Assembly: GCA_964649705.1 (NCBI GenBank)
Contig: CAZYRM010000110.1
Location: 1-21,703 of the forward strand
Direction: 5' to 3'
Source of the DNA: an uncultured Planctomycetia bacterium
GTDB lineage: Bacteria > Planctomycetota > MHYJ01 > WSZJ01 > CAZYRM01
Length of the DNA stretch: 21,703 nucleotides
Below are positions 2,316-21,703 of the stretch, in pieces; within the stretch, counting starts at the first letter, position 1; every line of letters starts with the position of its first letter. Under the pieces are notes generated by a model, which saw only the letters and a list, made by a program, of their open reading frames with translations, was not told where the DNA came from and ran no database searches. A program made the position numbers and the translations under genes.

Positions 2316-2458
2316 CGCCTGCCGGGGAGTCTGCCACACGATTGAGGTCCGGAGGTTGCGCGACAGCCTGGAGTCTGGGACAATTCGCATCCGATTCTGG
2401 GTCCGAGGCGGTCGAGAGGCCGCCGGCCCTCGCCCGGTCGGATATCGCGGACTCCGCC

Positions 2459-4780: not shown

Positions 4781-4855
4781 TCGCGCTCTCGAGGCGCACA
4801 CGTCGGCCGCCCCGCGGAAGGGCGGGGGGCCGCACACCGTGGAGGGATGGCCGAG

Positions 4856-5236
4856 ATGCCGAAGATCCTGCTTGTCGAAGACAACGAAATGAACCGCGAC
4901 ATGCTGTCGCGCCGACTCGAACGGCGCGGCTTCCAGGTCTCGATCGCCGTCGACGGCAAGGCGGCCCTCGATCTCGTCCGGACCGAGCTTCCCGACCTGG
5001 TCCTCATGGACATGAACCTCCCCGAGATCGACGGCTGGGAGGCCACCCGACGGCTCAAGGCGGACGAGGCCACGCGCCCGATCCCCGTTCTCGCGCTCAC
5101 CGCGCACGCCATGGCGGGCGACCGGGACAAGGCGCTCGCGGCGGGGGCCGACGACTACGACATCAAGCCGGTCGAGTTCGCGCGCCTCGTGGGGAAGATC
5201 GAGGCTCTCCTGAAGAGGACGCCGCCGAAGGCGTGA
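4856..5236 (+). CDS. Single-domain CheY-like response regulator receiver
   Basis: The translation reads MPKILLVEDNEMNRDML…DLVLMDMNLPEIDGWE…DYDIKPV. GGAGGG at 4841-4846 sits 9-10 nt upstream of ATG 4856. An in-frame ATG at 4847 is too close to the SD sequence to be the start. Stop is TGA at 5234-5236. Confidence 0.88.
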   Translation: MPKILLVEDNEMNRDMLSRRLERRGFQVSIAVDGKAALDLVRTELPDLVLMDMNLPEIDGWEATRRLKADEATRPIPVLALTAHAMAGDRDKALAAGADDYDIKPVEFARLVGKIEALLKRTPPKA

Positions 5237-5273: not shown

Positions 5274-7705
5274 ATGTTGAACGCCCTTCGCCGCGCCCTG
5301 GTCCGCCGACCGATCGTCGCCATCAGCGCGCTCGTCCTCATCGCCGGCGTCGCCATCGTCTTCCTCATGAACCGCCTGGCGACCAACCTCCTGGAGTTCA
5401 AGGCCGCCCGCGACGCGTCCCTCTACTCGACGGCGCTCGCCGAGTTCCGCACGCTCTACACGTCCGAGGTCGTCGCCACCGCCACGGCGAACGGGATCGA
5501 GGTCACCCACGACTACAAGAAGAAGAAGGGGGCCATCCCGCTGCCGGCGACGCTCAGCATGCTGCTGGGCGAAAGGATCGGGGTGCACGAGTCGGGGGCC
5601 GAGAGCCATCTCTATTCCCCGTATCCCTTCCCGTGGCGCGCCGCGGAGGGGGGCTTCGCGACGGGTTCCGCAAGGCGGCCTGGGACCATCTCAACGCGGA
5701 GCCCGAGGGCGCCTACTACCGGTTCGAGACGGTCGGCGGCAGCCCCGTGCTCCGGTACGCCACGGCTGACCGCATGCGGCAGGCGTGCGTGAACTGCCAC
5801 AACTCGCACCCCGACAGCCCGAAGACCGACTGGAAGGAGGGAGACGTCCGCGGCATCCTGGAGGTCGACCTCCCCATGGTGGCGGCGCAGACGGAGACGC
5901 GGAGGGAACTGCTCGGGACGACGGCCCTCCTGGCCGGGATGGCCGCGGTCGGGCTCGGCCTGCTCGCGCTCCTCATCGGCGGGCTGCGGAGGACGTCGAG
6001 CGACCTGGAGACGAACGTTCAGAAGCTCCGCGAAGCGCACGAGCAGCTCAGGGTCAGCTACAACACCGTCGAGGAAACGGTGCGGACGCGGACTTCCGAG
6101 CTTCAGACGAGCATGAACGACCTCGCGCGCGCGAACCAGGCGCTGGACGAGGCGCGGGAGCTTGCCGAGCAGGCGAACCGCACGAAGAGCGCCTTCCTCG
6201 CGAACATGAGCCACGAGCTGCGTACGCCCCTCAACGCGATCATCGGGTACAGCGAGATGCTTCAGGAGGAGATGTCGGGGGAGGGGCGCGACGCGCACGT
6301 CGCCGATGCGGAGAAGATCCGCGCCGCGGGACTCCACCTGCTGCGCCTGATCAACGAGGTGCTCGATCTGTCGAAGATCGAGGCGGGGAAGATGGTGCTC
6401 GCGCCGGAGACGTTTGACGTGGCGCGACTCGTCGATGACGTCGTCAGCACGGTCCGCCCCCTCGCGGAGCAGAACTCGAACCGTCTGATGGTCGAGGTCG
6501 CCCCCGACGCTGGCGACCTCTACGCAGATTTGACGCGGGTACGCCAGACGCTGTTCAACCTCCTCAGCAACGCGTGCAAGTTCACGCGGAACGGCGTGGT
6601 GACGGTGAAGGTCCGCCGGGAGAGCGCCGCGGATGGCGGCTGGATTTCGATGGCGGTCACGGACACCGGCATCGGGATGAGCCCGGAACAGGTCTCGAAG
6701 CTCTTCCAGGAGTTCCAGCAGGCGTCCTCCTCCACCGCGCGCGAATACGGCGGCACGGGATTGGGGCTCGCGATCACGCGCAGGCTCTGCACCCTGATGG
6801 GCGGGGAGGTGACCGTGACGAGCGAGCCGGGGAAGGGCTCCACGTTCACGGTGCGGCTCCCCGTCGCGCGGGAGGCCTCGCCTGCGCGAGAGGAGCCGAT
6901 CGTCGGCGCCTCACCCGCCCTTCGGCACGAAGCCGCTTCCGGACGCAACCTCGTCCTCTCGATCGACGACGAGCCATCGACCCTCGAGCTGCTCTCCCGC
7001 TTCCTGGGCAAGGAGGGCTTCACGATCGTCACGACGACCAGCGGGGTCGAGGGGGTGAACCTCGCACGGAAGCTGTCGCCGATCGCCATCACGCTCGATG
7101 TGATGATGCCCGGGACCGACGGCTGGGAGGTGCTGACGATGCTCAAGAGCGACCCGGCCACCAGGGACATCCCCGTCCTCGTGTTGAGCATTCTCGATCA
7201 GCAGCAGACGGGCTTCGCGCTCGGGGCGTCGCACTACCTCATGAAGCCGATCGACCGCGACGCGCTCGTAGGAGTGCTCGCCCCCTACCGCCGCGTCGAC
7301 GGCGCCGCAAAGGTCCTGGTCGTCGAGGACGACCCCGACAGCCGCGACCTCGCCCGGAGGATCGCGGAGCGGCAAGGCTGGAGCGTCACGGAAGCCGTGA
7401 ACGGGCGCGAGGGACTGGAGCGCATGGTCGAGGTGTCCCCCGACGTCGTCATCCTTGACCTCATGATGCCCGAGCTGGACGGGTTTGAGTTCCTGAAGGA
7501 GATGAGGCGCGAACCGAAGTGGCGCACCGTGCCGGTGATCGTCGTCACCTCGAAGGACCTGACGACGGAGGACCACATGCGCCTGAACAACGGCGTGCTG
7601 AAGATCCTCCAGAAGAGCAAGATCACGAAGGACGACCTGCTGAGCGAGATCCGCGACGCGCTGCATGGACGGATCGCGACCTCCATCCGCCCGCAGGTCT
7701 CGTGA
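5274..7705 (+). CDS. Hybrid sensor histidine kinase: N-terminal TM, periplasmic DUF3365/Tll0287-like heme-c sensor (CxxCH), TM, HisKA, HATPase_c, two REC. It is interrupted by a single-base frameshift in a G6 run (5648-5653), so it is a possible pseudogene or sequencing error
   Basis: Frame 0 (5274..) gives an N-terminal TM helix and the first half of the sensor (…[15 protein letters not shown]). Frame 2 (from 5633) continues seamlessly with [13 protein letters not shown]…YYRFE…[41 protein letters not shown]. That is followed by a TM helix, the H-box [23 protein letters not shown], a HATPase (GGTGLGLAI) and two receiver domains (ITLDVMMPG…YLMKP and [12 protein letters not shown]…). Inserting one G restores a continuous ORF. 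Confidence 0.8.
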
Positions 7706-9372
7706 CGACCGTCGGTCCCGGGCCTCGCCGCCCCGCGCCCAGCGCGACGTGGATCGCCCTGGTCGCTGCGGCCTACGTTGTCACCGGCCGGCTAGGGATC
7801 GCGGCAGCGCTCCAGCAGGTCACTTCTGTCTGGCCCCCGTCGGGTCTTGCCCTCGCCGCGGTCCTCCTCCTCGGTCCGCGCGCGGCGGCCGGGGTGGCCC
7901 TCGGCTCCTTCCTCCTCAATTTCGGCCTCACCTTCGACCGCGCCCGCCCGGTCGCGTCGGTCGCCGTCGTCGCGGCAATGGCGGTCGGGTCGACGATCGA
8001 GTGCCTGGTCGGGCGCGCGCTGCTCCTGCGCTTCGCCCGCGGCGCAGCCTGCCTCGACCGGGCCGCCGACGTCTTCCGCTTCGTGGCGCTGGCAGGGCTA
8101 CTCAGCCCGACGCTCGCAGCGACGATCGGCGCCGCTGCCCTGACCCTGGGAGGCCCGCCCTCGCACCGCGGATTTGGCCCCATCTGGTCCACCTGGTGGA
8201 TCGGGGACGCGGTCGGCGTCTTCGTCGTCGCGCCACTGCTGCTCGCCTGGGCGCGAGAGCCGCGCCTTGCGCGCGACCCCTGGCGCTGGGCGGAGGCCCT
8301 GCTCCTCGGCGGGGCGGTCCTCGCGGTCGCGCTGACTGCGTTCCGCGCCGGCTACCCCGTCGAAACGCTCGCGATCCCGTGTCTGGTCTGGGCCGCCTTC
8401 AGCTTCGGCGCTCGCGGCGCGACTCTGCTCACCGTCGTCCTCGCGGGGATCGCGGTCTGGGGAACCGTCCACGGGCACGGCACCTTCGCCCGGACGACGC
8501 TCGGCGAGTCGCTCGCCTTCCTCCAGACGTTTGTCGGCGTCGTCGCGGTCTCCTCCCTTGCCCTCTGCGCCGTGCTCGCCGAACGCGCGGCCCGGTCCGT
8601 CGACCTCCTCCGCGCCATGGAGGAGTCGACCGCCGCCCGCGTCGCGGCGGAATCGGCCAACCGCGCGAAGACCCTGTTCCTCGCCAATATGAGCCACGAG
8701 CTCCGCACGCCTCTCAACCACATCATCGGGTACGCCGAAATGCTCCAGGAGGACGCGGAGCGGGAAGGGCGCGCGGAGGCCGTGTCAGACCTGAAGAAGG
8801 TCGTCACGTCCGCGCGCTCGCTCCTGGGGGTCCTTCATTCGATCCTCGATGCCGCCCGGCTGGAGGCGGGCACGATCGACCTGACCATCGGCGAGTTCGA
8901 CCTCTCCTCGGTGGTCTACGAGGTGAGGGGCCTGACCCTCCCCCTGGCGGAGGCGAACGGCAACACGCTGGAGGTCCGGGTCGCCAACGGGATTGGCCCT
9001 GTTCGAGGTGACCGGGAGAAGGTGCGCCAGGCCCTCCTCCATGTCGTCGACAACGCGTGCAAATTCACCAGGAACGGCGCAATCTCCGTGGCGGCGTCGC
9101 GGGAGACCTGGGGAGGACGTCCCTGCCTTGCCATCGTCGTGTCGGACACGGGAATCGGGCTGGGTAAGGAGGAGATCGACGGGATCTTCCGTCCGTTCGT
9201 CCAGGTCGACGCCTCCCCCACGCGGCGCTACGGAGGCCTCGGTCTGGGCCTCTCGATCGCACGTCAGTTCCTTCAGATGCTCGACGGGGATCTATCGGTG
9301 ACAAGCGTGCCGGGCCAGGGATCGACGTTCACGCTGCGGCTGCCCGACGGCGTCCTGCCCAGCGGAACCTGA
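7702..9372 (+). CDS. MASE1-domain sensor histidine kinase (HisKA + HATPase_c)
   Basis: A GTG start at 7702 overlaps the upstream TGA (GTGA). The N-terminal polytopic membrane domain has the MASE1 signature (…[34 protein letters not shown]…). The H-box [23 protein letters not shown] is near-identical to that of the upstream kinase. The HATPase region carries DNACKFT…[12 protein letters not shown]…[11 protein letters not shown]. Stop is TGA at 9370-9372. Confidence 0.8.
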
Positions 9373-9557
9373 CGTCGTCGTGACCGCGCGAGCGGCTGCT
9401 TCGGACTCACCAGGATCCCCGCGCCCCGCGCGTCCGCTTCGGATGCGCTGCGGGGCGGGTGCGCGGATGCGGCGCTCGCAGCTTCGCGCTTGCCACGGCC
9501 GAGCGCCGCATGCTTCCATGTCGGACAGTCCGAGAGGGCGGGGACATGGCTCCTCGC

Positions 9558-9593
9558 GCCGCGTGGAGAGCGTCGAGGAGGGGAGGCGATGAC
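9558..9593 (+). repeat. 36-bp direct repeat, copy B (gccgcgtggagagcGtcgaggaggggaggcgatgac) at the start of the permease gene
   Basis: It differs from copy A by one mismatch. In one frame it encodes the orphan peptide …RVESVEEGRR*, and its ATGA supplies the ATG of the FtsX permease. Confidence 0.85.
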
Positions 9594-10857
9594 GTTGCGG
9601 AGGTGGCTCAGGGACGTCCGGCTCGGCGTGAAGACGCTGCTCCTGCACAAGCTGCGCTCCTTGCTGACGATGCTCGGCGTGGTGTTCGGCGTGGGGAGCG
9701 TGGTGGCGATGCTGGCGGTGGGGGAGGGGGCGAGCCGCGAGGCGCTGGAGCAGATCCGGAAGCTGGGGAGCCACAACGTCATCGTCACGGCAATGAAGCC
9801 GACCGAGGAGTCGACCTCGAGCACTCAGCGCATGCGGATGCTGATCTACGGGCTGACGTACGAGGACGAGGTGAGGGTCAGGGAGGGGTTCGCGTCGGCG
9901 ACGCGGGTCGTTCCGGCGAAGATCATCCGCAAGGAGGCGAGGCTCGGGGAGCGGACGCTGGAGCTCAGGGTGGTGGGGACGACGCCGGAGTGGTTCGAGC
10001 TGGTGCCTCGGCCGCTGCTGGCGGGGCGGATGCTCCTCGCGTCGGACCGCGAGCAGCGGACGAACGTGGCGGTGCTGACGGAGTACGGCGCGCGGAGGCT
10101 GCTGGCGGCCTCGAACACGCTGGGGCAGGTCCTCAGGGTGGGGACGCACGCCTTCGAGGTGGTGGGGATCGTGCGGAGCGAGGGGGGGCAGGGGAGCAGC
10201 GTGCAGACGCCGGACCAGGAGGTGGACGCCTACATCACGATCGACGTGGCGCGGGCGCGGTTCGGCGACGTGTTCACGAGGATGAGCTCGGGGTCGATGG
10301 AGCGGGAGCAGGTGGAGCTGCACCAGCTCATCGTGGAGGCGCGGTCGCTGGACGAGGTGGAGCCGATGGCCGCGGCGCTGCAGGCGATGTTCGACCGGTT
10401 CCACCCGAAGAAGGACGTGCGGATCAGCGTGCCTCTGGCGCTGCTGCGCCAGGCAGAGGCGACGAAGCGGACGTTCAACATCGTGCTGGGCTCCATCGCG
10501 GGGATCAGCCTGCTGGTGGGCGGGATCGGGATCATGAACATCATGCTGGCGAGCGTGACGGAGCGGACCAAGGAGATCGGGATCCGAAGGGCGATCGGGG
10601 CGAAGCGCAGGCAGATCGTGGGTCAGTTCCTGATCGAGACGGTGGTGCTCTCGTCGATCGGCGGTGTGATGGGGGTGGCGCTCGGGATGGCGATCCCGCG
10701 GGTGATCACATACGCGGCGGGGATGCCGACGGTGGTGACGCCGTGGAGCGTGGCGCTCGCGTTCGGCATCTCGGGGGCGGTGGGAGTCGTCTTCGGCCTG
10801 TACCCCGCGGTGCGCGCCGCGCGCCTGGACCCGATCGAGGCCCTGCGCCACGAGTAG
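9589..10857 (+). CDS. ABC transporter permease, FtsX/MacB family, with a large periplasmic domain
   Basis: ATG at 9589 is preceded by GGAGGGGAGG. The translation MTLRRWLRDVRLGVKTLLLHKLRSLLTMLGVVFGVGSVVAMLAVGEG shows the MacB N-terminal TM1. A periplasmic domain of about 200 aa follows, then three C-terminal TM helices with the FtsX motif (IMNIMLASVTERTKEIGIRRAIGAKRRQI…). The track start at 9490 is an upstream extension. Confidence 0.85.
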   Translation: MTLRRWLRDVRLGVKTLLLHKLRSLLTMLGVVFGVGSVVAMLAVGEGASREALEQIRKLGSHNVIVTAMKPTEESTSSTQRMRMLIYGLTYEDEVRVREGFASATRVVPAKIIRKEARLGERTLELRVVGTTPEWFELVPRPLLAGRMLLASDREQRTNVAVLTEYGARRLLAASNTLGQVLRVGTHAFEVVGIVRSEGGQGSSVQTPDQEVDAYITIDVARARFGDVFTRMSSGSMEREQVELHQLIVEARSLDEVEPMAAALQAMFDRFHPKKDVRISVPLALLRQAEATKRTFNIVLGSIAGISLLVGGIGIMNIMLASVTERTKEIGIRRAIGAKRRQIVGQFLIETVVLSSIGGVMGVALGMAIPRVITYAAGMPTVVTPWSVALAFGISGAVGVVFGLYPAVRAARLDPIEALRHE

Positions 10858-10865
10858 GGAGGCCT

Positions 10866-10900
10866 CTCGGGGCCCGCGTCGCAAGGCGGGGGCCCTCGCT
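10866..10900. terminator. Possible bidirectional GC-rich hairpin between the convergent permease and PDZ-protein genes
   Basis: The sequence ggggcccgcgtcgcaaggcgggggccc forms an imperfect stem (ggcccgc / gcgggggcc) with no U-tract. It lies in the 69-bp convergent intergenic gap. Confidence 0.25.
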
Positions 10901-10926
10901 CTTAATGGCTCGCACGGGCGCCTGCG

Positions 10927-12342
10927 CTACTTCTTCCCGAGATCGCCGGCGAGGAGCGGGAGCTTCCCCTTCGGGAGCTGCAGGATGAGGACGTAGCTCG
11001 CCGTGGTCCAGACCGGCCCCATCTCGCGGTCCAGGTTCCTGACGGATCCGAGCCCCGCCGCCGTGGGGTGCGCGCGGAACGCCCCGTCCAGGCATCGCGA
11101 CGAGAGCATCTCCAGGCGGAACACCTCGTTGAACGGCTTCCAGGATGCGCTGCCCAGGTGCGTGCACGCGAGGGCCGACGTCGTGAAGTGCATCACGGGG
11201 GAGATGTGGCTGGTCGGGATCTTGTCGAGCGACCCCTTGAAGAACGAGGACATCTTCGGGAAGAACGGGTGCTTCTGGAGGCCCAGGAGCGAGAACCCCC
11301 ACAGGCACCCCGACGTCCGTCCAGGCTCGCCGTTCCTCTGGCCCGCGCGGTAGCCGATCCCCCCGTCCCCTGGGCTCGCCGAGACCGCGTACGCGACCCC
11401 GCGATCGACCGTCTTCTGCGGGACCTTGAACCCCGCCTTCTTCAACGCCCCGAGCGCGCAGAGGCACCAGTTCCCCGCGATCTGCAGCTCGACGTACTTG
11501 AGCGCGTTCGGCCCGCCCGGCCCGTGCGCCCACCCGCCGCTCGCCTCCTGGCCCCGCTCGATCGCCGCCATGGTCTCCTCGAGCTTCGCCTTCAGCCCGT
11601 CGCTCGGCGCGATCTGGTAGACCTGGCAGAGGAAGATCGCGGTGTAGGCGTACCCCCAGTTCGTCTGGTTCCAGTTCCCCGGCGGGAATCCCGCCAGCTC
11701 CTCGGCCGTCGCCGCCTTGCCGCAGTTCTTCGAGACGAAGTCGACTCCCTTGCGGAGGTTCTCGGCGTACGGCCCCTCCGTCTGCGTGCTCCCTGAGGCG
11801 AGGAGCGCGAGGCAGACGAGGCTGGTCATCACGACTTCGCCGTTCGTGGCGCTGTACCTCGCGTCGTAGCCGCCGTCGCCCCGCTGCTTCGAGGCGATGT
11901 ACTTCAGCGACTCCTCGATCACCTTCTCGCAGCGCGCGCACCCGGTCGGACAGGTCGCGGCATGCGGACCCGGGGAGGGGAGCTCGATCGGGAGGTTCTG
12001 CTTCTTCCCGCCGCGCATGACGAGGAGCGAGAGCTTGGGGTCCTTCTTCGACTGGGCCTTCTCAAGGAGGTCGACGAGCTGGTAGACGAGCAGCGACTTC
12101 GGGTTCGTGAAGGCCTGGGTACCGACGCCCGCGATCACGTCCCCGGGCGCAAGGCCCGCGGCCTTTGCGGGCGCACCCTCCGCGACGGAGGTGACGCGGA
12201 GGCCCCAAGCCCCCCCGGCCAGCCCGTCGCCTCCCTTCTGCGGGAGGCCCTCCGCGCCAAGCGGGCCCAGGTTGAAGGACGGCTCCTCGGCGGCGACGGC
12301 GAGGCAGGAGCAGAGGAGGAGCACGGAGCGCAGGGTTGCCAT
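10927..12342 (-). CDS. Secreted PDZ-domain protein with prenyltransferase/squalene-cyclase-like alpha/alpha-toroid repeats
   Basis: ATG at 12342 has GGAGG 7 nt upstream. A signal peptide MATLRSVLLLCSCLAVAAEE is present. The PDZ region reads GLRVTSVAEGAPAKAAGLAPGDVIAGVG…LLVMRGGKKQNLPIEL. Repeated QxxDGG(W/Y)-type motifs (KQRGDGGYD, QEASGGWAHGPGG, PGDGGIGYRAGQ) are characteristic of prenyltransferase/terpene-cyclase repeats. Stop is TAG at 10927-10929. Confidence 0.7.
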   Translation of the reverse strand: MATLRSVLLLCSCLAVAAEEPSFNLGPLGAEGLPQKGGDGLAGGAWGLRVTSVAEGAPAKAAGLAPGDVIAGVGTQAFTNPKSLLVYQLVDLLEKAQSKKDPKLSLLVMRGGKKQNLPIELPSPGPHAATCPTGCARCEKVIEESLKYIASKQRGDGGYDARYSATNGEVVMTSLVCLALLASGSTQTEGPYAENLRKGVDFVSKNCGKAATAEELAGFPPGNWNQTNWGYAYTAIFLCQVYQIAPSDGLKAKLEETMAAIERGQEASGGWAHGPGGPNALKYVELQIAGNWCLCALGALKKAGFKVPQKTVDRGVAYAVSASPGDGGIGYRAGQRNGEPGRTSGCLWGFSLLGLQKHPFFPKMSSFFKGSLDKIPTSHISPVMHFTTSALACTHLGSASWKPFNEVFRLEMLSSRCLDGAFRAHPTAAGLGSVRNLDREMGPVWTTASYVLILQLPKGKLPLLAGDLGKK

Positions 12343-12357
12343 CGTTTCCTCCGACGA

Positions 12358-13380
12358 TCAGGGTGTCTGGGGAGGACCCGAGGCTACCATGCGTCCCTCC
12401 GCGCCGACCAGCTCCCTCAGGTAGTGCGTGAGGGCGAAGTCCAGCCAGCGCATCCGAGGGACTCCCTTCCCGACGTACCCCATGTGGCCGCCGAAGTCCT
12501 CGAGGTGGAGGTGCACCAGGTCCGACTTCTCCGCCGCCACGTGGTCGCGCCAGTCGATGAAGGGGTCGTCCCTGGCCGCCAGGACCACCGTGGGCCGGTC
12601 GATCTTCGCGAGGTGAGGCATGGCACTGCAACGGGCGTAGTAGTCCTCCCTGTCGCGGAATCCGCCGATCGGGGCGGTGACGAGGTCGTCGAAGCCGCGG
12701 AGCGTCGTCCAGCTCGGGATCCGGTAGCGATCCGGAATCAGCCCCGCCGCCACGCGCTCCCGCACCGCGCGGCGGCAGCGCAGGACGAATCGGAGGTCGT
12801 AGACGCGGTTGAGGCCGCGCTCGAGCAGGCGCGCCCCTTTCTCGAGGTCGATCGGAGGATTCACCGCGATGGCGAGGTCGGGCTTTTCGAACCGTCCGAT
12901 CCCCTCCCCCAGGTTCAGGAGGAGCGCGTTCCCGCTCAGGGAGAATCCCACGGCGACCAAGCGCTTGCCCGGATGGACCGCCCTCGCGTGCGCGAACACG
13001 GCGCCGAGGTCGTCGGCACGCCCGCTGTGGTAGATGCCCGCGGCGAGGCCCGCCCCGTCGCCGCAGCCGCGGTGGTTGAAGCTCCACGCCCCGTGGCCGA
13101 GCTCCTGCGCCACGGCGACGCCGCGGCGCATGTAGTCCGCGTCGTTGTCGCCTCCCAGGCCGTGGAAGAGGCAGACCAGCGTGTCGCCGCCTCCAGGGTA
13201 CTCGCGGCCCGCGAGGCGGTCCCCGTCCGGCAGGGTCAGCTCGATCCGTCGGAAGGCAGGGTTCGGCGGGGGCCCCGGGAGGGAGTTCCCGATCAGCGTC
13301 TGGAGATGGCCTCCCCGCGCCCACCACGGGGGCGTGCACGGAAGAGGGGGCGGAGCCGGGCAGAAGGCACCGCTCAGCAC
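12358..13380 (-). CDS. Alpha/beta hydrolase, YheT/ABHD-type
   Basis: The N-terminal motif PPWWARGGHLQTLIGN is typical of the YheT family. The nucleophile elbow reads VAVGFSLSGNALL. The C-terminal acid and His regions are VLAARDDPF and EDFGGHMGY. Start is chosen as GTG at 13380 (VLSGAF…), about 20 aa before GHLQT. The longest ORF extends to ATG 13527, so the start is uncertain. The stop lies 15 bp upstream of the PDZ gene, in a probable operon. Confidence 0.75.
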   Translation of the reverse strand: MLSGAFCPAPPPLPCTPPWWARGGHLQTLIGNSLPGPPPNPAFRRIELTLPDGDRLAGREYPGGGDTLVCLFHGLGGDNDADYMRRGVAVAQELGHGAWSFNHRGCGDGAGLAAGIYHSGRADDLGAVFAHARAVHPGKRLVAVGFSLSGNALLLNLGEGIGRFEKPDLAIAVNPPIDLEKGARLLERGLNRVYDLRFVLRCRRAVRERVAAGLIPDRYRIPSWTTLRGFDDLVTAPIGGFRDREDYYARCSAMPHLAKIDRPTVVLAARDDPFIDWRDHVAAEKSDLVHLHLEDFGGHMGYVGKGVPRMRWLDFALTHYLRELVGAEGRMVASGPPQTP

Positions 13381-13631
13381 GCCCGTCCGTCCGAGGCGGT
13401 CCGCGGCCGATCCGGTCGTCCCAGGGGGAGATGCCACTCGTGCCTGAACAACGCCGTGTGACTCCACTGCTCGACTTCCCGTCCCAAAGGTTGGGTCGAT
13501 CCTATCGGCAGGAGCCACCCACCGCAACGGCGGGGCGCGTCCCTTCGTTCTTGATCGCCCGCACGTGGGAGCCTATGCTCCGCAACGCTTGCCGCGAGGA
13601 CCGAGTCTCCACTGGCTGCCGCGAGTCGACG

Positions 13632-14156: not shown

Positions 14157-14202
14157 GGAGGCGTGAAGCCGGGAAGAGCGAGATCGCTTTGCTCGCTGTC
14201 CG

Positions 14203-14237
14203 CTGGGAGGGGCTGCAGGGGTCACGGCCCCTCCCAG
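14203..14237. terminator. Perfect 11-bp inverted repeat hairpin (ctgggaggggc-N13-gcccctcccag) downstream of the GNAT gene and upstream of the toxin-antitoxin operon
   Basis: The stem and 13-nt loop can be read directly from the sequence. There is no U-tract, so it could be an intrinsic-terminator-like structure of a high-GC genome or an operator for the downstream toxin-antitoxin promoter. Confidence 0.35.
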
Positions 14238-14306
14238 GTCGCGCGCGCGTGGATGACCTTGGCGGCTCGCGGCCGCGGCTGTAAGATGCAGGCAAAGGAG
14301 GAGCCC

Positions 14307-14504
14307 ATGAATCCCTGGATCATAGAAGAACGCCGCCTCCTGGTGTGTCCGCCCAGCCAGAGGATTACAGTACGGATCGCGCCTGCCACCCCGACGCCGG
14401 AGTCGCGCCATCCCCTTTGTGGCGCCTGGGCGGATGAGCGCCCCGTAGAGGAGATCATCGAGTCGCTCAGGTCGCTGCGACGCCGCCTCTCGGGAGCTCG
14501 GTGA
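14307..14504 (+). CDS. Putative type II antitoxin (VapB-like partner of the downstream PIN toxin), 65 aa
   Basis: AAGGAGGAG SD sequence lies 5 nt upstream of ATG 14307. It is a small protein (MNPWIIEERRLLV…CGAWADERPVEEIIESLRSLRRR). Its stop is 7 nt before the PIN gene start. The assignment rests mainly on position and size, so it is weakly supported. Confidence 0.5.
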   Translation: MNPWIIEERRLLVCPPSQRITVRIAPATPTPESRHPLCGAWADERPVEEIIESLRSLRRRLSGAR

Positions 14505-14510
14505 ACGCCC

Positions 14511-14921
14511 TTGAAGTACCTCTGGGACACGAACACCCTAATCTACTGGCTGAACGGCGACACCCGCGTCGAGGCCCTCCGCCTGCAACGTGGGTCCGAC
14601 AACATCGGCCTGTGCTGGCCGGTTGTCCTGGAATTGGTCCTGTGCACCAGCCAGTCCACGAACGTCGAGCGCAATATCCGGAACGCTGTGGAGGTCATCG
14701 CTGCGTTCCAGCCTATCCTCGAGTCTGACGGCGCCGTGATGGACCGTTTCTGCGCCTTGCGCGCTCAATTCAAGGCGAAGGCGACCCCGAAGCCCGAGAT
14801 GGACGTGCTAATCGCCGCCCACGCCCTCGTTCACGACCTGACGCTCGTCACCTCCAACGGCGCGGACTTCGAAGGCACCCCAGACCTCCGGATCGAGGAT
14901 TGGAGGTCTAGTTCCCGATGA
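14511..14921 (+). CDS. PIN-domain toxin (VapC-like ribonuclease)
   Basis: A TTG start at 14511 gives (M)KYLWDTNTLIYWL. Conserved acidic residues match a PIN domain (DTN…, VVLELV, LVTSNGADF). Its stop overlaps the ATG of the next gene (ATGA at 14918-14921). Local GC is visibly lower than the surrounding DNA. Confidence 0.75.
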   Translation: MKYLWDTNTLIYWLNGDTRVEALRLQRGSDNIGLCWPVVLELVLCTSQSTNVERNIRNAVEVIAAFQPILESDGAVMDRFCALRAQFKAKATPKPEMDVLIAAHALVHDLTLVTSNGADFEGTPDLRIEDWRSSSR

Positions 14922-15703
14922 CAACGACTTCGCGCGAATACGAGCTCTTCACGCAGATCGTCTACCAGGCGCTGGTGCGCGAGGTCCCCGACACCCGGGT
15001 GGAGCACGACGTCCAACTCTCCGATCCCTCCGGGGTCGAGCACCAGGTGGATGTCTATCTTGAGTTCAAGATCGCCGGACACGTCTACCGGACGATCATC
15101 GAATGCAAGCAGTGGACGCGCATGGTAGACGTGGGACCTGTCACCGACTTCTACGGCCTGATCCAGTCCCTGGGCGTCGAGAAGGGGATCATGGTCTCCA
15201 AGCTGGGCTTCAGCGATCCGGCGAGGGAATTCGCGCACGCCAGGGGGATCGACCTCGTCCAACTTCGGAAGCCTAGCGAGGAGGACTTGGAGAGACGCAT
15301 CAAGAGGATGGTCGTCCGTGTCAGCTTCTACATCCCCGAAATCGCCGACGTTGCCCTCGAACCGGCGACGGCTGCAGTGTCGTCTCGGGATCTAGCCGTG
15401 AACACGGGCGAGGCCAGGATTGTGGATGCGGGGTCGGGGCGGGAGGAGACCTTGCAGTCCGTCCTGCAACGAACCCTGCCCAAGGGTTGGCCAGAGGACT
15501 GGCAGACTGTGACGATTCCTCTCGGCGCTGGAACTGTTCTGGCGGTGGGTGGCGAGCGCATACCCGTCTCCGAGCTGCGGTTCCGTGCGAGGTTTCACCG
15601 GGCCGATGAACAGGTACTCCTCGACGGGGAGGCCATCGTCCGCGCGATCCTGCGCGATGTCTTTACCGGCGAGATCCGCACGGTGCGCCGCGTCGGCGCC
15701 TGA
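14918..15703 (+). CDS. Mrr-like restriction endonuclease-fold protein (PD-(D/E)xK nuclease; N-terminal Mrr_cat domain plus an uncharacterised C-terminal domain of about 120 aa)
   Basis: The translation reads YELFTQIVYQAL…HQVDVYLEF…YRTIIECKQWTRMVDVGPVTDFYGLIQSLGVEKGIMVSKLGFSDPAREFA, with a D…E-C-K catalytic triad arrangement. It is translationally coupled to the PIN gene. Stop is TGA at 15701-15703. Confidence 0.72.
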   Translation: MTTTSREYELFTQIVYQALVREVPDTRVEHDVQLSDPSGVEHQVDVYLEFKIAGHVYRTIIECKQWTRMVDVGPVTDFYGLIQSLGVEKGIMVSKLGFSDPAREFAHARGIDLVQLRKPSEEDLERRIKRMVVRVSFYIPEIADVALEPATAAVSSRDLAVNTGEARIVDAGSGREETLQSVLQRTLPKGWPEDWQTVTIPLGAGTVLAVGGERIPVSELRFRARFHRADEQVLLDGEAIVRAILRDVFTGEIRTVRRVGA

Positions 15704-15854: not shown

Positions 15855-18800
15855 TCACTTCCAGCTCAGGATCATGTCGACGAGCTTCCCCAGGACCGGC
15901 ACGTCCTTCACCGCGCCGAGGATGATGTTCTTCCTGGCCGCCTCGTTGAACGGCCCGCCGCCGACGTGCCCCTCGACGTCCTTCACGGCCGCGTCCAGCC
16001 GCTCCTGGGCACCCTGCTTCCCCTCGATCAGGTCCCCCAGCGCCTCCAGCGCGTTCGCCTCCTTGCGGAACCCCTTGTCGACGTAGTCGATCTCGGCCTG
16101 CAGCATCGCCTGGTGCAGCTTCGACATCCCGGGCGCGCTGCCGGCGATGCTGATCATCCCCTGGATCGCGTCTCCATTGTCCGCGTCCCCGCCCTTCACC
16201 CGGTCCCGCGCGTACCGCATGAGCTGGAGCACGCCGTCCAACCGGTTCAGCGACTCCGAGACCTTCTTCAGCGCGTCGGGCGTCTCGCTCTCTACGCCCG
16301 TCAGGATGCCCGAGAGCTCGCCATACTCGCCCGCCGAGCCCGCCGCGTTCGCCGTCGCCTGGACTCGGTTGCGCCACCAGGTGATCGTGTCCTTCGTCAC
16401 CGGGACGCCCGAGTCGAGCACCGCCGTCCGCGCGCCGACCAGCTCCGCGTGGATCGCCTTGAGCCTCTCCTGGTTCGCCGCGGGGTCCTTCGCGAGTTCC
16501 TCGACCTGTCGAAGCGCCTCGTCCACGCGCAGCCGGTGGACCTGCATCTCGACGGCCGCCTCCACGTGGCGGCAGGCGACCTCGGTCGCGGGGGTAGAGA
16601 CGTGCGCCCCCTTGAGCAGCGTGCGCATGACGCCGATCTGCACGCGCGCGTCGAGGTCCGTCGTCGCGGCGCGCACCTGCTCGAGGATCGCCGCCAGCTT
16701 CCCGAGGAGCTCGTCCTCGCCCGCCTTCTTCCCCTCCTCGTCAGGGACGTAGAGCGGGACGTCGATCTCGCAGACGTTGTTCCCCTCGTCCATCTCCTCC
16801 AGCTTCCCGTCGGCGTCGATCCTGGCCGAGAGCCGCGTGTCGCCCATCTCCAGCGTCCACGACATCGCGTACTTGTTCATGTACCAGTCCTGCACGACCT
16901 TCGGCCTCGCCTCGAACGTCTTCCACTCGCCGGGGCGCCATCCGTCGGCGCCGAAGAGCCTCACGTCGATGGTCCGCTTCCCCTCGCCGCTCTGCGGGTT
17001 CAAGACCGAGAAGCGGACGGAGAGCACGCCGCCCTTCTCCACGGCCTTCCCGACGTTCCGGGCGCGGAGCGTCAGCGTCGTCTCCTCGCCCGGTCTCGGC
17101 ACGGAGGGCTCCACGACGAGCTCCGCGGCGACGAGGTCGGGCTTGTCCTTCTTCGGGGGCACGAGGAACGCCAGCGGGAAGGTCATCGACGCGCGGGCCT
17201 TGTCCACCCGCAGCCGGAGCGTCACCGTTCCCTCGGCGATCTTCTCCAATGGGATCAGCTTCCCCGTCGCGAGCCCCTCGCCCTCCCCCTCGACCGGCAG
17301 GGGCGCGCTGACGACGACCCCGTCCTCGTCGAGCATCCCGACCTCCCCGGCGATCGGCGCGAAGCCGGGAATTCGGACCTCGGCCTCGGGGAAGAGGGTG
17401 GAGAGGGTGATCGAGATGGCCACGCCGCCGATGGCGCCCGCGAGGCTGCCGTCGGTGCCCTGGCTCGTGCGGTACTTCACCTGGAAAGGGAGCCTCAGGG
17501 CGTTGTCGACGATCTCTCCCTCCTTGGGGACAACCGTGCATCGGAGCGTCGCCCAGGCGGAGCGGTCGCCGATGGTCAGCACGCGCGTCTGCGCCCCCGC
17601 GATCGCGCCGAAGCGGCGGAACTCGAGGTCCTCGAGCGCGAAATCGGCGATCGGGTTTCCCGCGCGCTTCCTCAGCTTCCCCTCGCCGTCGTGGAAGTCG
17701 AGTCCCAGGCCTTCGGTGACCCAGGTCAGCGTGTCGCCGGAGGCGTCGTTCCAGAGCTCATCGGCGATGCGCGTGATCCACGCCGTGCCGCAGATCCGGC
17801 CCTCCTCGGGGGTCCGCGGGAGGCGGAAGATCAGCGACCAGATGTTGTCCTCCTCGTCCAACCCGAGGACGCGGTCACGGACGCCGCGTGCCTGGTTGGC
17901 GCGGGCCGCCATCCACGGCGGTGCGTCCTCGCCGGCGGCCTCCATCACGATGTGCGGGCCCCACTCGGACGGCGCGCGGGCCAGGATGCGGAGGCGCGTG
18001 ATCGCGGAGGAGGGGGCGCGATCGGCGCCCAGGCCGAGGAGGGGAGAGGCGAACCCGAGGCGGCCGAGGATGACGGAGGCGTGCCAGCGCGTCTCCGCGT
18101 CGTCGGAGGCGAGGGCGTCACGGAGCGCCTGGAGTGCACTTGCGTCGCCCCTCCGCGCGAGCACCCCGAGCAGGTAGAGGACCACGCCGGGTCCAGGTTT
18201 CCTTTCAAGGGCGGCCATCAAGGGGTCGGGCGTGCCCTCAATTAGCAACCTGGGCCTGGCCAGGGCCCCCTCGGTCGCCAGGCGGAAGATCGCGGCGGCC
18301 GCGGCCGAAGCGACCTCTTTGTCCTCCGAGGCCGTCAATCCGAAGAGCTTGGGAAGGTCCTCTCGCGTCGCGAGGGACTCCAGCGCCCCGAGCGCGACGT
18401 CGGGCCGCTCCGAGCGGGGGGCTTCCTCCGCGAGGACTGGCCAGGCGTCGTGCGCGCGCACGGTCTCAAGACCGGCGTACGCACCGAAGCACGAGTCGCC
18501 CCGAAGGAGTGCCACGAGGTGTTCGCGCATCGTCCCGGGGAGCGCCCGTCGGGGGGGCGGGCCGCCGAATCCAAGGGCCGAGAGCAGGCGGTGGACCTCT
18601 TCGTCGTCGTCGGGGCGGCCGGTGATCTCGGCGCGCAGCTCCTCCGCGGCCCCGACGGCGCCCTCGCTGTCGGCGATGGCGCGCTCGGCGCGCTCGAGAA
18701 CTGCGCGGCGGCGGCGCTCCTCCGCCTGGCCGGCGGCGGCGAGGAGCGGGTCGCGCACGGAGGCCTCGGCGTCCCGCGCCAGCGCCTGCAGAATCCGCGC

Positions 18801-19616
18801 CTCGAGGCCCGGGTCGCCCGCCTCGCGGGCGTCGAGGAGGGCCTGGGGCAGGACGCCGGGCGTACCGCCTGCCTGCGAGAGCAGGAGGCGCGCCTCGGAG
18901 CGTCCCGAGGCGCAGCCGCGTCCGTCGAAGAAGGCGAGCGCCTTTTCCAGCGAGGCGCGGATGGCGGTCGTGTCGGCCGCGTGCGCGTCGAGGCGGAGGC
19001 GCGCCGAGCGGAGGCGCAGCGTAGCGGGCGTCAGGGAGAGCCCGGCCTTCTCGGCCGCCTCGATGGCGGAGTCGAGCGTGTCGGCCGCGGCGACGAGGTC
19101 GAGCCCGCCCTCCTGCAGCGAGGCGGCGGCGATGGCGTCCAGCAGATCGAAGGCGATTTGGACGTCCCGCTCGAAGAAGAGCTGATCGCCGAGCCACTGG
19201 AAGTCCCGCGCCAGGACGGCCGCGTCGAGCACGTCGACGCCGTCGGGCGCGTTCCCCATCACCTCGAGCTGGACGAGGCACGCGGCCTCCAGGCCCACGT
19301 CGCCGGCCGCGGCGGCCTCCCTGGCGGCCTCGGCCATGAGGCGGCCCGCGAGCATCGGCACGTCCTTCCCCTCGGCGGCCCCCGCGGCCTCGGCCTCGTA
19401 TCGGATTTCGGCGAGGTCGCTCAGGCAGCGCGCGGCCTCGGCGTGGAGCCGGTCACGACGCGCGGCCGCGACGCACAGGCGAAGCGTCTCGGTCGCCTCC
19501 GCGACCTGATGGGCGTCTCTCTGATCGGCGGCGAGTCGTCGCTGATCGCGGATCCACGAGGCGGTGTCGGCGGAGGCGACGACGGTAGCGATGAGGAGGA
19601 CGAGGGCGGTGCGCAT
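15855..19616 (-). CDS. Large secreted protein (1253 aa): signal peptide, Ala/Leu-rich helical region, HEAT/PBS-lyase-like repeats, Ig-like CARDB-type domain, C-terminal helical/coiled-coil region
   Basis: ATG at 19616 has AGGAG about 9 nt upstream and gives the signal peptide MRTALVLLIATVVASA. The track's GTG at 19646 adds 10 aa. HEAT-like repeats are visible (…LYLLGVLARRGDASALQALRDALASDDAETRWHASVILGRLG…). A beta-rich segment reads …PDLVAAELVVEPSVPRPGEETTLTLRARNVGKA…MDEGNNVCEIDVPLYV (CARDB-like). Stop is TGA at 15855-15857. Confidence 0.65.
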   Translation of the reverse strand: MRTALVLLIATVVASADTASWIRDQRRLAADQRDAHQVAEATETLRLCVAAARRDRLHAEAARCLSDLAEIRYEAEAAGAAEGKDVPMLAGRLMAEAAREAAAAGDVGLEAACLVQLEVMGNAPDGVDVLDAAVLARDFQWLGDQLFFERDVQIAFDLLDAIAAASLQEGGLDLVAAADTLDSAIEAAEKAGLSLTPATLRLRSARLRLDAHAADTTAIRASLEKALAFFDGRGCASGRSEARLLLSQAGGTPGVLPQALLDAREAGDPGLEARILQALARDAEASVRDPLLAAAGQAEERRRRAVLERAERAIADSEGAVGAAEELRAEITGRPDDDEEVHRLLSALGFGGPPPRRALPGTMREHLVALLRGDSCFGAYAGLETVRAHDAWPVLAEEAPRSERPDVALGALESLATREDLPKLFGLTASEDKEVASAAAAAIFRLATEGALARPRLLIEGTPDPLMAALERKPGPGVVLYLLGVLARRGDASALQALRDALASDDAETRWHASVILGRLGFASPLLGLGADRAPSSAITRLRILARAPSEWGPHIVMEAAGEDAPPWMAARANQARGVRDRVLGLDEEDNIWSLIFRLPRTPEEGRICGTAWITRIADELWNDASGDTLTWVTEGLGLDFHDGEGKLRKRAGNPIADFALEDLEFRRFGAIAGAQTRVLTIGDRSAWATLRCTVVPKEGEIVDNALRLPFQVKYRTSQGTDGSLAGAIGGVAISITLSTLFPEAEVRIPGFAPIAGEVGMLDEDGVVVSAPLPVEGEGEGLATGKLIPLEKIAEGTVTLRLRVDKARASMTFPLAFLVPPKKDKPDLVAAELVVEPSVPRPGEETTLTLRARNVGKAVEKGGVLSVRFSVLNPQSGEGKRTIDVRLFGADGWRPGEWKTFEARPKVVQDWYMNKYAMSWTLEMGDTRLSARIDADGKLEEMDEGNNVCEIDVPLYVPDEEGKKAGEDELLGKLAAILEQVRAATTDLDARVQIGVMRTLLKGAHVSTPATEVACRHVEAAVEMQVHRLRVDEALRQVEELAKDPAANQERLKAIHAELVGARTAVLDSGVPVTKDTITWWRNRVQATANAAGSAGEYGELSGILTGVESETPDALKKVSESLNRLDGVLQLMRYARDRVKGGDADNGDAIQGMISIAGSAPGMSKLHQAMLQAEIDYVDKGFRKEANALEALGDLIEGKQGAQERLDAAVKDVEGHVGGGPFNEAARKNIILGAVKDVPVLGKLVDMILSWK

Positions 19617-19729
19617 GGCGGGGCTCCTGTTGAGGTCGAGGTGCACGGTCTACCGTGCGCGGGCGCGGAGGTCAACGCGAATCAGGCATCGCGCGCCTCG
19701 CCCCGATCGAGGCCCTGCGGCCGTGTCGC

Positions 19730-21586
19730 TCACGCCTCTTCCACGGCCGCGAGCAGTTCGCCCGCGTTGGCGGGGCGGCGGTCGCTCCTTGGCGAGAGCG
19801 ACCGCTGCACGGCGAGCCTGAGCCGTTCGGGGATCCCGTCCGCGAGCGGCTCGAAGGCCCCGATCGGCGGCTCCCCGGTGAGCATCTCATACAGCACCAC
19901 GCCCGCCGCGAAGACGTCCGTCCGCGCGTCCAACTCCCCTCCGGCGCGCACCTGCTCCGGCGCCATGTAGTGCGGCGTTCCGGCGCCGGTCAGGAGCGAC
20001 CTCATTCCATCCAGACCTATCGCGCGCGCCAGGCCGAGGTCCGCGAGCTTCACCTCGCCGTTCTTCCCGAGCAGGATGTTCTCCGGCTTCACGTCGAGGT
20101 GCAGGACGCCCTTCGTGTGGGCGTGCGCAAGCCCGGTGAGGAACCCGCGCGCGATCGACAGGGCCTCCGCCAGCGGGATCGCGCCGCGGGCAAGCCGCGC
20201 GCGCATCGTCGTCCCCTCCACCAGCTCCATGTGGAGGTAGGGTCTCCCGTTCGCGTCGCCGACGTCATGGACACGCACGATGTTCGGGTGCGTCAGTTCC
20301 ATCGCGAGGTTCACCTCCTTGCCGAAGCGGCCCCGCGCCGCACCGTCCTGGAGGAGCGCCCGCGTGAGGACCTTCAGGGCCACCTCCTTGTCCCGCCTCC
20401 GGTCTCGGACCCGGTACACCTCCCCCATGCCGCCGATCCCCAGCAGCTCGATCACCTCGAATCGCCCGTCGAACGCCTCGCCGACCTCCAGCGGTCGCGC
20501 CACGCCGAGCCGCTCGTGAGTCGCCGCGAGGAGGCTGTGCCGCACGGCCGCGGAGTCCGTCAACGCCTTGCAGGACGCTTCCAGCGCGAGAGGCTTGCCG
20601 GCGACGACTGACTCCGCCAGCTCGCGGAGGACCTTCTCCAGCGACCCGCGCTCCGGTGGCGTCATTCGGGAGAGGGCACCCCGCACGGCCGCCTGGATCC
20701 CCGCGACGGAGAGTCCCCGCAAGGCGCGCGACCGGTCCGGGTCGCCCCCGCTCGCCCCTTCCAGGAGCGCGTCTACCCAGCGATCGAGCTCGTCGAAGTT
20801 GACGTCGACGCGGTCCTGGAGGCCGGCCGTAATCCGCGCGATCGGCTCCGCGAGGTGCGGCGCAGCCTGGGCGATGCCCTGAAGCGCGGCACCGAACGCA
20901 CGCAGCGGGATCCCGCCGCAGCCGTCCGAGTCGGCCTCCGTCGGTGACGGGGACGACTTCCTTCGGAGCATCACTTCCAGGGCTGCGCCGAACACCCAGG
21001 ACTTCTTCCCCTTGAAGGCTCGCAAGGGAGCGGCCCGGTCCGCCTCGGCGCGGACGATCGTGAAGCTGACGAGCTTGAGGCCGAGCGCGGCGAGGTCCGG
21101 CTCGGACGCCTCGCGGACGCGGGCCGCAAGGCCCTCACGATCGTCGCAGACCTGCGCAGCCGTGGAGCGGGCGGCAAGACCGAGGAGATGCGGTGCGAGG
21201 ATGCGCTCCGCGACTCCCATCACTTCGCTCGGGAGTGTTCCGACGAACACCTCGGCGGCGCGGGCGATCATCGGCTCGGTCGAGTCCACTTTGACCTCGG
21301 CGTGCGCATCCAGGCTCACGGGGCAGCCGTCGAGGGCGATCACCGGGTGAGACGGGATGGGGACGGCGACGAGGTCCAGGGAGACGACGTCCACCCTCTC
21401 GAGGATAGGCCAGATGAACGCGCCCCCGTGTACCACGATGCGTCGTCCCGAGGGCCCGCCGGTGACGACGAGCGCCTCGTTCGGGCGGGCGACCACGCGC
21501 CGAGAGGCGAGGAAGCGGAAAAGGAGGACGACCGCCGCGAGCGCGGCGCCGAGGATCAGCAGCGGGGTGCCCAGGGGACCGGGCAT
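19730..21586 (-). CDS. Membrane-anchored SPFH (band-7/flotillin-like) domain fused to a Hanks-type Ser/Thr protein kinase
   Basis: ATG at 21586 has GGGAGGA 8 nt upstream. An N-terminal TM helix ([15 protein letters not shown]) is followed by the SPFH core ([11 protein letters not shown]…[43 protein letters not shown]). The C-terminal kinase carries [11 protein letters not shown]…[22 protein letters not shown] and GTPHYMAPE. Stop is TGA at 19730-19732. Confidence 0.85.
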
Positions 21587-21703
21587 GGTGCGAGTCCTCC
21601 CGCACGATGATCGCACCGGGCGGTTCGCCGCGCAACGCCGGGATAGTTCTACAACGCTACTCTCCAGCCGAATCGGTGGCGGTGGCGTGCTCGTAATCGG
21701 GCT

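Follow-up and report, generated by a model that had tools for sequence, protein, structure and literature searches.

A flotillin-type SPFH domain fused to a Hanks-type kinase, encoded beside a large secreted HEAT/CARDB protein in an uncultured groundwater bacterium

Flotillins are proposed to act as a scaffold for signalling kinases such as Bacillus subtilis KinC (background in PMC4928834 and PMC7360373). A 2009 survey of prokaryotic SPFH proteins leaves kinases unmentioned, and the literature searched held no description of an SPFH or Band_7 domain fused to a kinase. Such a fusion is encoded on a contig from a Hainich groundwater metagenome (CAZYRM010000110.1, from an uncultured Planctomycetia bacterium), whose 21,703 nucleotides, at 70% GC, are here called the window. 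The 618-residue product contains, in order, a transmembrane (TM) helix, a flotillin-type SPFH domain, a helical domain, and a Hanks-type Ser/Thr kinase domain; the next gene downstream encodes a 1253-residue protein with a predicted signal peptide, HEAT-like repeats, and a CARDB domain. A first-pass annotation of the window took these two proteins for a membrane-microdomain signalling or envelope-surveillance pair that it did not recognise as a described system. The architecture that joins a flotillin-type SPFH domain to a Hanks kinase is very rare and, by the literature searched, apparently undescribed. The pair itself is contradicted by comparison with orthologous loci. We consider it likely that the two genes are independent, that they became adjacent by chance in one lineage of uncultured groundwater bacteria, and that the kinase stands alone.

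Both genes lie on the minus strand. The kinase gene occupies 19730-21586, stop codon included, and is delimited by its open reading frame (ORF) and translation, by matches to Pfam Band_7 and Pkinase, and by full-length orthologues. It begins with ATG at 21586, 9 nt downstream of a ribosome-binding site (GGGAGG, 21596-21601), and its stop codon is at 19730-19732. The large gene occupies 15855-19616, likewise with its stop codon (15855-15857) and likewise defined by ORF, translation, and orthologues (P0122, 68% identity; P0123, 51%); its ATG at 19616 follows AGGAG (19624-19628) by 7 nt. The spacer of 113 bp (19617-19729) holds this second ribosome-binding site and no recognisable terminator or sigma-70 promoter. 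The gap and the length of the downstream protein are thus exactly as annotated. For both genes the ATG start is preferred over longer GTG-initiated ORFs, because the orthologues start at the equivalent Met.

Three observations establish both genes as real: GC at the first, second, and third codon positions (0.76/0.50/0.89 and 0.74/0.49/0.93 in the two frames) follows the coding-type pattern for DNA of 70% GC; orthologues are full-length; and the ratio of nonsynonymous to synonymous substitution rates (dN/dS) is 0.2-0.34 for the closer orthologue pairs (0.34 for the large gene against its orthologue at locus L004). Upstream of the kinase start, the contig continues for only 117 bp before it breaks off, as it does in a second assembly (window 21587-21703; L003 1-117), suggesting a repeat or a strain-variable region at that point.

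An AlphaFold2 model of the kinase protein, computed from 23 sequences (mean predicted local distance difference test, pLDDT, 83.5), divides the chain into a TM helix (6-28), an alpha/beta SPFH domain (to 182), a helix (185-208), a disordered stretch (about 197-226), a helical region (226-360), and the kinase (370-618). The TM helix had been annotated from the sequence, and its presence is confirmed: residues 2-33 form the sole hydrophobic segment of the protein, with Kyte-Doolittle windows above 1.6 at the N-terminus only, and they coincide with the first modelled helix. The membrane anchor itself spans about residues 7-27 (21506-21568). Directly C-terminal of the helix is an Arg-rich stretch of 11 residues. 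From the positive-inside rule and the need of a kinase for ATP, which together argue for cytoplasmic SPFH and kinase domains, we infer an N-out/C-in topology in which about six residues are predicted to lie outside the membrane.

The SPFH (Band 7) domain, residues 32-181 (21044-21493), is of flotillin type. It matches Pfam Band_7 (PF01145) at 56.9 bits against a gathering threshold (GA) of 23.6 (E 3.7e-15), its closest PDB sequences are human flotillin-1 and flotillin-2 (E 1e-16), and its pLDDT values are mostly 80-96. The assignment made from the letters alone therefore stands, and the alternative that this region is not SPFH is refuted. Both features of the SPFH superfamily are present: a Band_7 match above threshold, and a membrane anchor directly before the domain. 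The match to NCBIfam FloT is confined to the SPFH part: it takes in positions 11-181 of the 477 in that profile and scores 75 bits, where the cut-off is 700. The kinase protein has no Flot-type Pfam match, and the long coiled-coil/C-terminal region of flotillins, which drives their assembly into SPFH rings or cages, is absent; in the structural model, the SPFH domain is followed by the helix of about 24 residues at 185-208 and then by the disordered stretch. Lacking the flotillin tail, the protein is, by sequence and model, not a flotillin proper. No NfeD gene was found downstream in the window or at any locus of a kinase orthologue; upstream, the window reaches only 117 bp.

What separates the SPFH and kinase domains had been annotated as a linker of about 150 residues. 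A separating region is indeed present, but it consists of a folded helical domain and a short disordered tether. The tether, rich in Ser, Pro, and Ala (about residues 197-225; 20912-20998), has pLDDT below 50 and is weakly conserved among orthologues. The helical pre-kinase domain (residues 226-360; 20507-20911) comprises eight helices with block-mean pLDDT of 76-91, and forms the extreme N-terminus of relatives that have no SPFH domain (P0005, P0124, P0129, P0169, and P0204). The linker label is corrected because residues 226-360 are both modelled with confidence and conserved in these SPFH-less relatives. The domain, about 135 residues long, returned no Pfam match and no PDB sequence match.

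The kinase domain (residues 370-618; 19733-20479) proved to be as complete as annotated. Pkinase (PF00069) aligns with residues 376-576 at 157.6 bits against a cut-off of 31.7 (E 5e-46), and the model shows the bilobal protein-kinase fold. The catalytic set is intact, and invariant in the orthologues: G383, G385, and G388; K405; E424; D498; K500; N503; D516; and A542-P543-E544. Two signature motifs deviate. HRD is HLD (H496-L497-D498), which makes this a non-RD kinase, and DFG is DLG; the activation loop carries T533 and T537. Judged by these residues, the domain is apparently an active kinase.

The full architecture occurs in four clusters (90% identity) among 5.8 billion: the window protein, and its orthologues P0002-P0004, whose identities to it are 78, 69, and 52%. 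A profile search of 1.84 billion representatives (50% identity) gave a full-length match to the protein's own cluster only, and a hidden Markov model of the SPFH domain alone, run against 272 retrieved proteins, matched the same four and no others. No relative of the kinase was found in 185,579 species genomes (one genome per species). A scan of JGI metagenomes for the kinase returned one locus, the already known L001, and a scan of IMG/VR returned none. These counts cover relatives of this kinase; independent fusions of SPFH domains to unrelated kinase domains may exist.

An assembly or annotation artefact would be a rival explanation of the fusion or the adjacency: a chimeric contig, or a frameshift that merged separate genes. 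The contig is of metagenomic origin and breaks off close to the kinase start in two assemblies. However, four independent full-length orthologues, from different samples, share the same TM-SPFH-helical-kinase order; dN/dS is in the range given above; the model is confident across all domains; and more than one contig carries the junction of kinase and large gene. With four orthologues under purifying selection, an artefact is excluded for the fusion, and for the locus as a whole it is scarcely credible.

The origin of the fusion is indicated by its relatives. The helical domain and kinase together are about 50% identical to SPFH-less proteins that start directly with the helical domain. By Pfam, the architectures of the relatives are helical-kinase-FGE-sulfatase (P0124 and P0204, as well as P0005 by its precomputed Pfam domains), helical-kinase-LRR (P0169), and TIR-kinase-FGE-sulfatase (P0008), where FGE denotes formylglycine-generating enzyme and LRR leucine-rich repeats. 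Because its nearest relatives combine the helical-kinase core with other modules, the SPFH-kinase is interpreted as a shuffling product of a modular non-RD subfamily; by this sequence comparison, the fusion is one that arose through gain of TM and SPFH at the N-terminus and loss of C-terminal modules.

The occurrence of TIR or LRR modules with a non-RD kinase in this subfamily is reminiscent of eukaryotic innate-immune kinase architectures.

The protein might alternatively serve in conflict or anti-phage defence, as a membrane-associated kinase like PD-T4-6, Stk2, or MADS Mad6 that is encoded near a small toxin/nuclease islet (PIN, Mrr_cat). PADLOC models match it at up to 237 bits (PD-T4-6) and 211 bits (mad6), and NCBIfam MADS6 matches at 146 bits; the TIR domain of P0008 and the LRRs of P0169 are in keeping with such a function, as are the PIN and Mrr_cat genes at 14511-15703, which lie in a dip in GC content, and the PIN gene that also follows the kinase at L001. 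Yet all of these profile matches span only the generic kinase domain (about residues 370-580), and they fall far below the NCBIfam cut-offs (460 bits for MADS6; for PglW, 75 bits against 990). It is on this ground that the defence reading is rejected. Moreover, the window holds no partner genes of these systems, the kinase has no conserved partner genes, and no relatives were found in viral contigs. The PIN proteins of the window and of L001 have no detectable relation, and the PIN and Mrr_cat genes of the window are on the opposite strand, with the 3.8-kb large gene between them and the kinase. We hold a role in defence to be improbable.

The proposed pairing of kinase and large protein fares poorly against the orthologous loci. 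The large gene is adjacent in none of the three orthologous kinase loci, and the kinase is adjacent in neither of the two orthologous large-protein loci. The survey of co-occurrence that the first-pass annotation had suggested therefore shows no pairing in five contexts, and with adjacency absent from all of them, a conserved two-gene system is unsupported.

One of the kinase loci is L010 (kinase 78% identical). There, a same-strand orthologue of the window's hydrolase gene (74% identity; window 12358-13527) precedes the kinase, and a convergent orthologue of its FtsX permease gene (86% identity; window 9490-10857) follows it; the large gene cannot sit between these flanks, which leave no room for 3.8 kb. 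The order hydrolase-kinase-FtsX at L010 corresponds in the window to kinase-large gene-[GNAT, PIN, Mrr]-hydrolase-DUF6288-FtsX. The position of the L010 kinase between hydrolase and FtsX indicates that genes have been rearranged locally among close relatives. The change is more complex than would follow from mere insertion of the large gene between flanks that stayed in place, a reading that the L010 comparison led us to reject.

At the loci with the 69% identical kinase (L001, L012, and L013), an 83-residue gene product, a PIN gene, and five more small genes are encoded downstream over 5 kb, and the large gene is absent from these 5 kb and from 10 kb upstream. At L002 (52%), a convergent gene for 347 residues lies 20 bp downstream of the kinase. 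At L004-L008 (68% identical large protein), a divergent gene for a 361-residue membrane protein lies upstream, a gene for 659 residues follows the stop codon without a single intervening base, and no SPFH-kinase is present in the 6.7 kb visible upstream of the large-protein orthologue; at L009 (51%), a divergent gene for 173 residues lies upstream. Apart from the hydrolase and FtsX matches between L010 and the window, none of the neighbours proved to be shared when compared by tblastn with every locus and with the window.

A single sample, ERZ909605 (also assembled as GCA_900218215.1), yielded orthologues of both proteins, the kinase at 69% and the large protein at 68% identity, but not on the same contig: the two contigs measure 26.7 and 24.4 kb. 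Synonymous divergence (dS) from the window is 0.70 for the kinase and 0.64 for the large gene, and the tetranucleotide correlation is 0.98. These similar values fit one sister organism in which the two genes are apart.

Several points weigh against this interpretation. The contexts compared are only three for the kinase and two for the large protein, all on metagenome contigs, two of them short; the two contigs of ERZ909605 (L012 and L004) may derive from different genomes; and the end of the window 117 bp upstream of the kinase hides any partners on that side. In the window both genes point the same way, only 113 bp without a detectable terminator or promoter separate them, and they may be co-transcribed here. 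Finally, the self-association on which a stand-alone SPFH-kinase would rely is an assumption, because the long coiled-coil/C-terminal region of flotillins is absent.

The spacer thus keeps alive a narrower version of the pair: a lineage-specific, co-transcribed unit in which, for example, the periplasmic repeat protein senses the state of the envelope and signals through the TM helix of the kinase. On this strand the 113 bp contain no intrinsic terminator and no sigma-70 promoter (fold z-score -0.54 relative to shuffled sequences), and the hairpin that covers the kinase stop codon is without a U-tract. The first-pass annotation had itself named two signs that would speak against a pair: the genes were never to be neighbours elsewhere, and a terminator was to separate them. 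The first was found, in five of five orthologous contexts; the second was not. The junction of kinase and large gene, moreover, occurs on at least two assembled contigs, and L004 encodes a different Ser/Thr kinase (with TPR) and a HEAT_2 protein 2-5 kb from the large-protein orthologue.

The protein architecture offers little to such a pair, however. With only about six residues exposed outside, the kinase has no periplasmic sensor domain, and direct contact between kinase and substrate is disfavoured because the kinase domains are cytoplasmic whereas the large protein is exported. The kinase encoded at L004 shares no more than 36% identity with the SPFH-kinase over the kinase domain and is without an SPFH domain; to judge by their paralogue diversity, Ser/Thr kinases seem to be abundant in such genomes, so a nearby kinase is weak evidence. 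Together with the missing adjacency in every orthologous context, these considerations make a lineage-specific pair unlikely.

The first-pass annotation described the large protein as secreted, with HEAT-like repeats, a CARDB-type domain, and long helical regions; the repeats, the CARDB domain, and the signal-peptide-like N-terminus (kept in three of three family members) are upheld, whereas for the C-terminus the only sign of helices comes from a model of low confidence. A predicted Sec signal peptide occupies residues 1-16 (19569-19616), with cleavage at ASA/DT, as judged from the sequence, a conserved motif, and a hydrophobic window at the N-terminus. The window protein, P0122, and P0123 all begin with MR, followed by a hydrophobic stretch and then ASADT or AAADT. 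This conserved motif is without a lipobox Cys, which argues for a Sec signal peptide and against a lipoprotein. The one other segment of comparable hydrophobicity is marginal, at residues 724-725 within a beta-rich region.

Behind the signal peptide, residues 17-460 (18237-19568) form an N-terminal region rich in Ala, Leu, and Arg (A 22%, L 13%, R 10%, E 9%); it is probably helical, and has no Pfam match at E of 1 or below. HEAT-like repeats follow at residues 464-576, approximately (17889-18227). HEAT_2 scores 35.9 bits against a GA of 27.7 when segment 380-600 is scanned, and 22.6 bits, below threshold, with the whole protein; chains of AlphaRep, a designed HEAT protein, are the sole PDB sequence matches of the large protein (E 0.002-0.06). 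Residues 590-824 (17145-17849) are a beta-rich region that is well conserved in the three orthologues, shows strands in the low-confidence model, and has no Pfam match. The Ig-like CARDB domain (PF07705) covers residues 825-949 (16770-17144): it scores 28.1 bits against a GA of 22.7 on segment 815-965, and 27.9 bits in P0123, but 20.9 bits, below threshold, with the whole protein. The C-terminal region, residues 961-1253 (15858-16736), is highly conserved, shows helices in the low-confidence model, and has no Pfam, NCBIfam, or PDB match. This model, an AlphaFold2 prediction of residues 590-1253 from a three-sequence alignment, has a mean pLDDT of 42.

In all, more than 70% of the length of the large protein is without a family match. 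Its homologues are two only, P0122 and P0123, among the 5.8 billion clusters, and the family is absent from the species-representative genomes and viral contigs scanned. The protein would be a Sec-exported non-lipoprotein with the order helical-HEAT-beta-rich-CARDB-helical, and the most fitting description is that of an exported protein with a scaffolding or binding role.

Two observations concern the surroundings of its orthologue at L004. The 659-residue protein encoded directly after the large-protein orthologue has a weak C-terminal match to heparinase II/III, and such a heparinase-like (polysaccharide-lyase-like) neighbour is a faint hint of envelope-glycan biology. The segment 10452-15989 of this locus contains the gene for that protein and then a convergent gene for a 384-residue HEAT_2 protein and the gene for the TPR Ser/Thr kinase of 675 residues; none of these has its like in the window.

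For the kinase as a stand-alone protein, the domain order suggests a simple mechanism. The TM and SPFH module would hold the kinase at the cytoplasmic side of the membrane, perhaps within ordered patches rich in polyisoprenoids, where self-association of SPFH domains would concentrate it. High local concentration could then promote trans-autophosphorylation or activation, for which T533 and T537 are candidate sites, as well as phosphorylation of membrane-proximal substrates. The scaffold that flotillins may give to kinases in trans would in this way be built into the kinase chain itself. The helical domain, inherited from the modular subfamily, would most likely act as a dimerisation or regulatory element.

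A bolder proposal treats the SPFH-kinase as a "Rosetta-stone" fusion: bacterial flotillin-type domains would recruit Ser/Thr kinases to ordered polyisoprenoid or hopanoid patches, and the protein would be a microdomain-gated kinase that reports membrane order. At present we find this doubtful.

A hopanoid-type gene cluster does occur near one kinase orthologue. At L001 (3215-9085, minus strand; also at L012), a divergent cluster stops, on the upstream side, some 0.9 kb short of the 69% identical kinase (10001-11848), with a gene for 162 residues between them; a gene for 265 residues also separates the hopanoid genes from the kinase. The cluster encodes a PNP_UDP_1 protein (HpnG-like), a radical SAM protein with DUF3463 (HpnH-like), a squalene-hopene cyclase, and LytB/IspH. 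This adjacency was observed at a single locus; the window stops short of the corresponding region. The placement of a flotillin-like kinase beside genes for polyisoprenoid lipids is suggestive.

The remainder of the window contains further genes. On the plus strand, a PIN gene (VapC-like; 14511-14921) overlaps the Mrr_cat gene (14918-15703) by 4 bp; a possible small antitoxin ORF lies upstream of PIN (frame 14163-14504), and GC is about 0.66 over 14-16 kb and about 0.70 elsewhere. Convergent with the large gene, the PIN/Mrr_cat pair could be a small toxin or defence islet. Genes for a MacA-like HlyD protein (195-1583) and an ABC ATPase (1586-2314), also on the plus strand, do not adjoin the gene for their FtsX/MacB-type permease (9490-10857). 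Four genes for signalling proteins intervene: Hpt-REC-GGDEF (2342-4780); a lone REC (4847-5236); a hybrid histidine kinase with a Tll0287-like domain (5633-7705); and a MASE1 histidine kinase (start at 7519 or 7665, end at 9372). Downstream of the alpha/beta hydrolase gene, on the minus strand, 10927-12342 encodes a 471-residue protein with PDZ and DUF6288. Scans of the window for Rfam families and tRNAs gave no match.

The value of the locus lies in the fusion, and is modest. The presence of an SPFH domain and a kinase in one chain lends gene-fusion support to the idea that SPFH scaffolds and kinase signalling are functionally linked in bacteria, and the protein is a compact construct with which to ask whether an SPFH domain without its tail localises or activates an enzyme. 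The weight of this evidence is limited by its source, one small clade of uncultured groundwater bacteria, and by a kinase subfamily that shuffles its partner domains freely. As for a two-gene system, the genes are adjacent in this lineage only, and nothing connects one protein with the other.

Four groups of described proteins invite comparison. Secreted repeat proteins with CARDB and HEAT resemble the large protein in their Sec signal peptide, HEAT_2 repeats, and one CARDB domain; the large protein differs in that most of its sequence (more than 70%) is unmatched and in having no homologue among species representatives. Hanks kinases of the PknB/Stk1 type resemble the SPFH-kinase in their complete kinase domain, single TM anchor, and activation-loop threonines. 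PknB, however, has the order kinase-TM-extracellular PASTA, whereas here the order is TM-SPFH-helical-kinase, with no extracytoplasmic sensor; the present kinase is also non-RD (HLD) with DLG, and scores 235 bits with NCBIfam PknB_PASTA against a cut-off of 450.

The closest relatives in sequence are P0005, P0124, and P0204, named by NCBI [quoted passage not shown]. They are about 50% identical over the helical domain and kinase, and have the same HLD. SPFH-less relatives with the helical-kinase core are without TM and SPFH, and carry FGE-sulfatase, LRR, or N-terminal TIR modules instead.

Flotillins (FloT and FloA; flotillin-1 and flotillin-2) share with the SPFH-kinase the type of SPFH domain, the N-terminal anchor, and, by prediction, the cytoplasmic side. 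The SPFH-kinase differs from them in three respects: it is without the coiled-coil/flotillin C-terminal region; its kinase is of Hanks type, not a histidine kinase; and scaffold and kinase are present in one chain.

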